64,000 bases of DNA, taken from Thermoproteota archaeon (GTDB taxonomy: Archaea > Korarchaeota > Korarchaeia > Korarchaeales > Korarchaeaceae). The stretch covers positions 64,001 to 128,000 of the forward strand of contig JAOZFN010000009.1 of the NCBI GenBank assembly GCA_027492205.1, given 5' to 3'. The text below continues a report on this DNA, generated by a model with database tools. The DNA itself is not shown here.

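Follow-up and report, generated by a model that had tools for sequence, protein, structure and literature searches.

We identified, on the reverse strand, a seven-gene operon encoding two polyferredoxins (pFd1 and pFd2), three AORs, a DPD/UacX-like FMN and 2×[4Fe-4S] reductase and a cyclic amidohydrolase (Hyd). The best-supported reading of its gene content and order is that the core is a reductive purine-ring-opening module, and that the AOR–polyferredoxin pairs are functionally coupled to it. The order on this strand is ATPase, permease, permease, BMP, pFd1, AOR1, reductase, pFd2, AOR2, amidohydrolase, AOR3 and APC permease, and the six junctions from pFd1 to AOR3 measure 3, −10, 9, 3, −4 and −10 nt when longest-ORF starts are used. 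Larger gaps lie before BMP (316 nt), before pFd1 (166 nt) and after AOR3 (276 nt); by eye, we also read an oligo-T run 3′ of the BMP stop and a TTTATTT element about 20–30 nt 5′ of the pFd1 start. Because the junctions are tight and the larger gaps and signals flank them, the redox and hydrolase genes, seven in all, appear to be transcribed as a single unit. Rfam gave no match across the whole window at the gathering threshold. Inverted repeats in four intergenic regions came to two weak pairs, both within 58400-58740, and the inverted-repeat search found no operator-like motif in the divergent region between SsnA and the ABC genes. G+C content is uniform across the window (59–68%).

All of the gene types listed in the first-pass annotation are present in Pfam and NCBIfam scans of the long ORFs of the window, which comes from a genome of 1.94 Mb in 17 contigs that is 96% complete. 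SsnA (IPR017700) passes NF005540 (554.8; cut-off 444) and TIGR03314 (531.4; cut-off 455.5), and carbamate kinase (YqeA) passes TIGR00746 (434.2; cut-off 358.25). The fold-II PLP enzyme is not a YgeX: the protein passes cysteine-synthase models (TIGR01136, 363.5; cut-off 344), and the best score in the whole genome for the YgeX diaminopropionate ammonia-lyase model TIGR01747 is 39, below 274. The YgeY-like M20 hydrolase reaches 296.4 with NF009555 (cut-off 321); read from a canonical start, its ORF begins at model position 45 and is missing positions 1–44. The 30–44 codons upstream give a YgeY-like reading in both this genome and its congener G001, and hold no in-frame ATG, GTG or TTG in this genome. 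Hyd is, by its model scores, a cyclic amidohydrolase at the superfamily level, with 294.6 for the HyuA-type hydantoinase model TIGR02033 (cut-off 393.25) and 330.5 for its best model, allantoinase (cut-off 357.85). Neither YgeW nor UacY was found in the window. An AOTC-like carbamoyltransferase candidate, 24 kb from SsnA, scores 190 for YgeW (cut-off 453) and 315 for N-acetylornithine carbamoyltransferase (cut-off 288); its 80% ortholog in the related genome G009 is only 2.8 kb from SsnA. Across the genome, the best SelD score is 67 (cut-off 125), and WtpA had no match. Two Opp/Dpp peptide importers lie further left in the window than the IOR and acyl-CoA synthetase genes. We rejected as genes the two forward-strand ORFs opposite the alcohol dehydrogenase and Usp genes, which are compositionally odd antisense artefacts without a family match; for the ORF antisense to the dehydrogenase, a protein-atlas search gave a best score of 0.81 and no lead.

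Positions of the principal features (window positions unless a contig of the genome, C5 or C11, is named)
Feature	Position	Strand	Remark
Seven-gene operon, pFd1 to AOR3	47415-56894	-	
SsnA, BMP ABC importer and seven-gene operon	47,415-63,842		
IOR-type 2-oxoacid:ferredoxin oxidoreductase and ADP-forming acyl-CoA synthetase alpha subunit	32816-36854		just left of the start of the island as first annotated
MDR Zn-alcohol dehydrogenase	41475-42407	-	true gene opposite ORF 41557-42270
Usp protein	44636-45082	-	true gene opposite ORF 44655-45146
ORF	41557-42270	+	rejected
ORF	44655-45146	+	rejected
AOTC-like carbamoyltransferase candidate	C11:151332-152495		
RuBisCO large subunit	C5:24531-25418		

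In the bacterial pathway, according to the available text of Li et al. (bioRxiv 10.1101/2025.05.19.654654), XdhD takes urate to 2,8-dioxopurine and YgfK reduces the ring; in C. difficile the reduction falls to UacX, a PydA homolog without the FAD domain that was assayed with reduced viologen and is presumed to be ferredoxin dependent. Ring opening follows, by SsnA at the pyrimidine and by HyuA at the hydantoin ring, the two ureido groups are removed by YgeW or UacY and by YgeY, YgeX yields pyruvate and carbamate kinase yields ATP; the same text calls SsnA a robust marker of the cluster. The genes, as laid out there and in the available text of Liu et al. (bioRxiv 10.1101/2025.04.24.650524), are xdhD-ygfM, ygfK, ssnA, hyuA, ygeW, ygeY, ygeX and yqeA in E. 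coli, with a C. difficile variant that has UacX and UacY. The archaeal locus shares with this cluster an SsnA equivalog, a cyclic amidohydrolase, a YgeY-like M20 hydrolase and carbamate kinase, and with C. difficile UacX an FMN/Fe-S reductase that has no FAD domain. Also shared is the pairing of reductase and SsnA-like hydrolase, the most constant archaeal feature (23/24 well-flanked metagenome loci). Unlike the bacterial cluster, the locus is archaeal, has no Xdh gene within it and includes a BMP ABC importer with predicted specificity for purine bases, and three AORs and two polyferredoxins are interleaved with its reductase and amidohydrolase. It further differs in having the AOTC-like carbamoyltransferase and a CysK-type PLP enzyme, in having no equivalog of YgeW, YgeX or YgfK and no SelD above the cut-off, and in a reductase without the loop that presumably holds the catalytic Cys of DPD.

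The first-pass annotation had read the ABC system as a nucleoside importer, and the predicted ligand of its BMP protein (PF02608, 138.5; cut-off 24.1) now points elsewhere. Its best solved matches are the purine-base binders 3s99 (E 2.5e-63) and AtzT 6pi5 (E 1.9e-56), over about 290 residues, and nucleoside-binding PnrA-type entries did not reach the threshold of E 1e-5 in the same search of solved structures. AtzT binds guanine at 0.11 uM and adenine at 2.5 uM, with pyrimidines bound at 620 uM or more weakly and GTP unbound, and adenine was modelled in the site of 3s99 (PMC6834077, available text). Because these nearest solved relatives bind guanine or adenine, the imported substrate is likely to be a purine base rather than a nucleoside. 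Unlike AtzT and 3s99, the BMP protein here is archaeal and is extended by about 70 residues at the N terminus and about 90 at the C terminus.

Related loci carry other parts of such a pathway. In seven loci that carry reductase homologues and no AOR (L085–L090 and L094), the order is AOTC-like, AOTC-like, carbamate kinase, SsnA-like, reductase and ThrC-like fold-II PLP enzyme, and one of them (L086) has, in addition, a YgeY homolog (40%) and, immediately behind the reductase, a CysK homolog (51%). On our analysis, this gene set is the one expected for a di-ureido intermediate. Among ten reductase-adjacent amidohydrolases sampled across classes, SsnA is the best NCBIfam model for eight (329–559 bits), one of which exceeds the cut-off of 444; the other two, from the Thorarchaeota locus L038 and from L128, are deaminase-like.

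The reductase has a DHO_dh fold (PF01180) and a 2×[4Fe-4S] domain, with eight invariant C-terminal Cys and no FAD domain. Aligned with pig DPD (E 2e-29), its active-site loop segment is about 12 residues shorter, and the Asn of the ELNLS motif is replaced by Ser while two other conserved Asn are kept. We take the shortened segment to be the one that carries the catalytic Cys in DPD. The Pyd-pathway equivalogs were not reached by the reductase (PreA model NF006183, 198.9; cut-off 335) or by Hyd (TIGR02033, 294.6; cut-off 393), and the best YgfK score in the genome is 57 bits (cut-off 835). Because the reductase is below the PreA cut-off and its active-site segment is altered, we call it UacX-like by architecture and context, and treat it as a candidate rather than an established member. 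With PydAc of Clostridium chromiireducens, as described in the available text of PMC7332683, it shares FMN and ferredoxin domains without an FAD/NAD(P)H domain, a low-potential Fe-S electron donor (proposed here) and a place in a ring-reduction/ring-hydrolysis cluster. Unlike PydAc, a uracil reducer with which it was compared by description, the archaeal reductase falls short of the PreA cut-off, has no counterpart of the catalytic-Cys loop of pig DPD and is flanked by SsnA-like genes rather than a plain Pyd cluster.

The three AORs are about 50% identical to one another and carry AFOR_N and AFOR_C domains. Among solved structures they match P. furiosus AOR (1aor), A. mobile WorL (9mqx_D) and A. 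aromaticum AorB (8c0z_A) best, whereas FOR, WOR5 and BamB score far lower. In AOR1, the one paralog aligned with 1aor, the CxxCxxxC...C ligands of the [4Fe-4S] cluster (three N-terminal Cys and a fourth) are kept. The positions that we take to be the catalytic Glu313 and His448 of 1aor are conserved in AOR1; Tyr and Val occupy the presumed positions of the 1aor ligands of the inter-subunit iron, Glu332 and His383. Multi-subunit AORs without two such inter-subunit residues, not named individually, are described in the available text of Arndt et al. The polyferredoxin pFd1, encoded 3 nt from AOR1, has 16 invariant Cys and matches best, among solved structures, AorA (1e-35), WorS (1e-33) and then the WOR5 small subunit; its AlphaFold2 model is poor (mean pLDDT 46.5) and draws a helix at residues 149–171. 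This genome encodes no separate polyferredoxin for AOR3. Further similarity links the polyferredoxins to AegA and YgfT, in the N-terminal domains of these two proteins, whose name in NCBIfam is ‘formate-dependent uric acid utilization’.

To known multi-subunit AORs, the operon bears both likenesses and differences. In Aromatoleum aromaticum, aorA-aorB-aorC encode a 4-cluster subunit, a W subunit and an FAD subunit (PDB 8c0z), and AorAB protomers form a filament with one AorC cap (PMC6365974 and PMC10413684, available text). In WorABCSL of Acetomicrobium mobile (PDB 9mqx), a single bifurcating WorABC ‘plug’ is wired to three WorSL units, and Feng et al. distinguish four types in the WOR clade (BF, N, M and U), with BF and N in Bacteria only (PMC12318220). 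Shared with AorABC and WorABCSL are a pterin large subunit of the AOR sensu stricto branch and, just upstream, a gene for a 4×[4Fe-4S] small subunit that matches AorA and WorS best. Like AorABC, the operon has a flavoprotein gene immediately after the large subunit, and like WorABCSL it has several catalytic subunits for each terminal module (three AORs to one reductase here, counted as genes, and three WorSL to one WorABC there). Unlike AorC (FAD/NAD, N type) or BfuABC (BF type), however, the putative terminal flavoprotein is a DPD/DHODH-fold FMN enzyme with two clusters of its own, and the large subunits come from three different paralogs that share about 50% identity. Because the gene after AOR1 encodes a DHO_dh-fold FMN protein, the operon is a variant, and not a member, of the AorABC/WorSL class. 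As judged from these predicted subunits, an archaeal polyferredoxin–AOR pair followed by a DPD-fold FMN/Fe-S enzyme matches none of the BF, N, M and U types.

The linkage is not unique to this genome: the same order recurs in two genera, in MAGs labelled as other archaeal phyla and in metagenome loci. SsnA relatives occur in 34 of the 41 related genomes at E ≤ 1e-40, with true orthologs (61–94% identity) in some only, and of the 43 genomes by which the collection represents the whole phylum, 11 pass the SsnA family model (by genus, with the genome under study counted, g1 4/5, g2 4/5, g5 2/4, g6 1/2 and g3 0/21). We compared nine contigs with an SsnA relative, eight with family-model orthologs and one with the sub-cut-off copy of G030, and placed all island proteins by tblastn. 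The order SsnA, then ATPase, permease, permease, BMP, pFd, AOR, reductase, pFd, AOR and amidohydrolase is identical in five of the nine, from G001, G003 and G004 of the same genus and G009 and G015 of a second genus (identities 50–76%). An AOR3-type gene comes directly next in the three congeners and 13 kb further on in G009. The G017 contig is just 5.8 kb long, and G030 has the SsnA-like gene only. Synteny of the island's left part, from the aminotransferase to the APC permease, and of the IOR and acyl-CoA synthetase genes is confined to G001, and the 3.5 kb beyond AOR3 in G003 was matched by none of the island queries. We rejected as instances of the module the AORs found 3–6 kb from SsnA in G025 and G014, which are of another type (grouping with the copy at C17:127498 of this genome) and have no UacX or Hyd partner.

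A scan of genome contigs with the reductase alignment gave 38 loci. In all 11 loci with at least 53% identity the reductase adjoins a polyferredoxin and/or an AOR, with an AOR in 10 of them; the eleventh is a 3.3-kb contig showing pFd2 only. Among these 11 are MAGs whose titles read Bathyarchaeia (L037), Thorarchaeota (L038) and ‘uncultured archaeon’ (L039), and some are probably the same assemblies as the related genomes, so that the two synteny counts are not independent. None of the 27 loci with 25–42% identity, mostly with Thermoplasmatota titles, has an AOR or polyferredoxin neighbour. In metagenome contigs, 80 loci (48–92% identity) were found, and an AOR is within 4.5 kb of the reductase in 45 of these (39 of the 64 with at least 2.5 kb on one side). 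Where at least 5 kb was available on both sides (n = 24), the neighbours include an AOR in 11 loci, an SsnA/TRZ-like amidohydrolase in 23, a cyclic amidohydrolase in 15, an AOTC-like carbamoyltransferase in 8, carbamate kinase in 6 and an Xdh-like gene in 2, with AOR and Xdh together in none; as the metagenome loci include repeated lineages, these counts describe the sample and not independent events. A FastTree of 93 reductases (at least 45% identity and at least 330 aligned residues, shorter hits being dropped) holds 61 that are linked to an AOR or polyferredoxin, 15 that are unlinked with adequate flanks and 17 undeterminable; the unlinked sequences fall in three clades.

The AORs of the module form a group of their own. 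In an IQ-TREE of 26 AORs, taken from the 11 AOR-family genes of this genome and from G009, G015, G014, G025, L033 and L037–L039, and built without the copies of G001, G003 and G004 or hits shorter than 450 residues, all module AORs fall in one group (support 88/87), apart from five other copies of the same genome, one on C4, one at C5:60910, one at C11:155262 and two on C17. Within it, the AOR3-type genes form a subclade (support 100/99) that contains Thorarchaeota-labelled genes located after an amidohydrolase–polyferredoxin pair. An internal stop in the alignment of the C4 AOR proved to be a true stop codon. A second, paralogous set of genes lies on C5, where 11 kb encode a DhnA-type aldolase-like protein, a reductase paralog (38% identical), an AOR, a polyferredoxin, a YgeY/ArgE-like M20 hydrolase, a TRZ/ATZ-type amidohydrolase, a hydantoinase-like amidohydrolase and another AOR, followed by an ECF-type ATPase; C5 also has an SsnA paralog (38% identity, 342 bits).

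The first-pass annotation had further proposed that AORs take the place of xanthine dehydrogenase. The window indeed has no Xdh gene, but the substitution does not hold for this genome, in which PF02738 matches occur only on C4, with none on C11. There, two XdhA/B/C-like sets are interleaved with an aspartate-carbamoyltransferase-like gene and adjoin an allantoinase-like amidohydrolase (393; cut-off 358) and a Liv/Urt-type ABC system; since the genome has these two sets, a replacement of XDH by AORs is unnecessary. In C. sporogenes, XDH and 2,8-dioxopurine dehydrogenase are both required (Liu et al.), and the C4 pair could correspond to these two enzymes. Among relatives, PF02738 was found in 9 of 41 (g1 5/5, g2 0/5 and g5 0/4). 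The five g2 genomes are 71–93% complete; four have SsnA, and two of those (G009 and G015) have the verified module. PF02738 was likewise found in none of the five genome records holding L033, L036, L037, L038 and L039, for which completeness is not given. The module-bearing records without PF02738 therefore number seven (G009, G015 and G041–G045), of which two may be duplicates. Xdh-like genes occur in 3 of the 80 metagenome loci, all without an AOR, and in none of the 45 AOR-linked loci within contig reach, and an XdhC-family gene follows UacX in the AOR-less L103. This complementary pattern of AOR and Xdh is suggestive but weak.

Electron input would be the most economical role for the AOR–polyferredoxin pairs. 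The Fe-S clusters are the only entry port of the reductase, its bacterial counterparts need reduced ferredoxin, and the polyferredoxins resemble AegA and YgfT at their N-terminal domains. Li et al., in the text available, describe the reduction step as thermodynamically uphill, with Enterococcus needing formate as a co-substrate. An IOR-type enzyme can also take the same place in the AOR-less loci L126 and L128. We extend this reading to a bolder one, to which we assign a probability of roughly 0.2: the polyferredoxin–AOR units and the DPD-like reductase would form one complex, a fifth type of AOR/WOR ‘nanowire’ in which the heterocycle-reducing FMN enzyme is the plug that takes aldehyde-derived electrons. 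Delivered at very low potential, these electrons might allow dearomatisation of purines without prior ‘activation’ by Mo hydroxylases, or else the AORs might themselves hydroxylate or dehydroxylate purines; either would give an XDH-independent, possibly tungsten-dependent route in several archaeal phyla.

The second of these options, the boldest one in the first-pass annotation, can be taken as an explanation in its own right, in which the AORs act on C2, C6 or C8 of the purine in place of XDH and 2,8-dioxopurine dehydrogenase and exchange electrons with the FMN reductase through the polyferredoxins. We regard it as unlikely, although bacteria need two Mo hydroxylases to take hypoxanthine or xanthine to 2,8-dioxopurine (Liu et al.) and the AORs sit beside the reductase as xdhD sits beside ygfK and ssnA in the bacterial clusters as far as these are described. 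Three AOR paralogs would also suit three ring positions, and the distribution of Xdh points the same way, with PF02738 in none of the five g2 genomes or the five records holding L033 and L036–L039, and with the Xdh-like genes of three metagenome loci and the XdhC-family gene of L103 in AOR-less loci only. However, Xdh absence from MAGs that are 71–93% complete or of unstated completeness is weak evidence, flanks of at most 10 kb cannot show genome-wide absence, and this genome already has two Xdh-type enzymes. Each of the three AORs has its closest matches among bona fide aldehyde oxidoreductases of broad range, with the canonical Glu and His kept in the AOR1 alignment, and we know of no AOR-family member that hydroxylates an N-heterocycle. 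Somewhat less probable to us is that the AORs oxidise aldehydes made by the pathway itself, either a formyl compound or semialdehyde that results from reduction followed by hydrolytic opening of the ring, or the semialdehyde of the class-III aminotransferase, and return the electrons to the reductase in a redox-neutral route. The reductase and the cyclic amidohydrolase, both possible aldehyde sources, each have a polyferredoxin–AOR pair, Hyd–pFd–AOR3 is a conserved sub-unit in Thorarchaeota-type loci, an alcohol dehydrogenase homolog follows the AOR3-type gene in L082, and the island includes an aminotransferase, a HIBADH-type dehydrogenase and the MDR alcohol dehydrogenase. Nicotinate fermentation offers a precedent, in which a ferredoxin-dependent reductase and an amidohydrolase-superfamily enamidase lead to 2-formylglutarate, followed by a HIBADH-family enzyme. 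By contrast, the reductive purine pathway makes no aldehyde in the available account of Li et al., and the aminotransferase, HIBADH and alcohol dehydrogenase genes are loosely linked, being syntenic in G001 only. AOR-less variants also keep the reductase, SsnA-like hydrolase and amidohydrolase, with no match to another aldehyde-oxidising gene among queries that did not include NAD-dependent aldehyde dehydrogenases.

That the module serves something other than purines we hold to be improbable. It might then act on pyrimidines, in an extended Pyd pathway of reductase, dihydropyrimidinase, M20 ureidopropionase, beta-alanine aminotransferase and malonic semialdehyde reductase or AOR, or on another reducible N-heterocycle. 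The gene set does formally span PydA–E-like functions, neither the reductase nor the amidohydrolase reaches any purine-pathway equivalog cut-off, the neighbouring amidohydrolase of Thorarchaeota-type loci and of L128 resembles deaminases and not SsnA, and the altered active-site loop would permit another substrate. Against this, the reductase lacks the loop that presumably supplies the catalytic Cys of uracil-reducing DPD, and the two carbamoyltransferases and carbamate kinase of related loci fit a di-ureido intermediate. Moreover, SsnA exceeds its equivalog cut-off and marks the uricolytic cluster in the available text of Li et al., and the nearest solved relatives of BMP favour purines about 1000-fold over pyrimidines (PMC6834077, available text). 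We think it very improbable that the AORs serve a peptide-fermenting archaeon as general aldehyde oxidoreductases, their position among nucleobase genes having no mechanistic meaning. Such an organism would be consistent with 11 AOR-family genes in 1.94 Mb, with peptide importers, IOR and acyl-CoA synthetase in the same window, with canonical AOR features and with the unpartnered AORs of a different type near SsnA in G025 and G014. Yet the genes overlap or sit 3–9 nt apart in one operon, their interleaved order is kept down to 48–55% protein identity and across phylum-level labels, the AORs form a dedicated subclade, and the paralogous module on C5 repeats the pattern.

The wider genome also carries a RuBisCO large-subunit gene, six PNP_UDP_1 nucleoside phosphorylase genes, three IF-2B-family genes and two Glycos_transf_3 genes. 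Read against the archaeal pentose-bisphosphate route, these genes suit a nucleoside-degrading organism.

Our search of the literature, supplementary files lying outside its scope, found no paper that links AOR-family enzymes with SsnA, DPD-like reductases or hydantoinases. The main text of Li et al. mentions archaea, tungsten and AOR zero times each, and the available text of PMC11291895, in which korarchaea, AOR and purine all occur, holds no AOR–purine link. From its predicted gene products, we regard the locus as a variant both of the reductive purine pathway and of the nanowire-type AORs, each of them a known kind of system. Elucidation of the anaerobic reductive purine pathway dates from 2025 and is limited to bacteria; the locus points to a counterpart in archaea, among uncultured lineages of hydrothermal sites and sediments, with different redox partners. 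Many members of the AOR/WOR family have an unclear physiological role; here, one subclade is tied by deep and repeated synteny to a defined catabolic context, which provides concrete substrates and partners for testing. Most module-bearing genome records have no Xdh-type match, which makes the conversion of guanine, adenine or hypoxanthine to a reducible form a directly testable question. Published nanowire AORs, which are described as bacterial, end in an NAD-reducing or bifurcating module, and a substrate-reducing FMN terminal module, if true, would extend the nanowire architecture to direct ‘aldehyde-to-heterocycle’ electron transfer and to Archaea.

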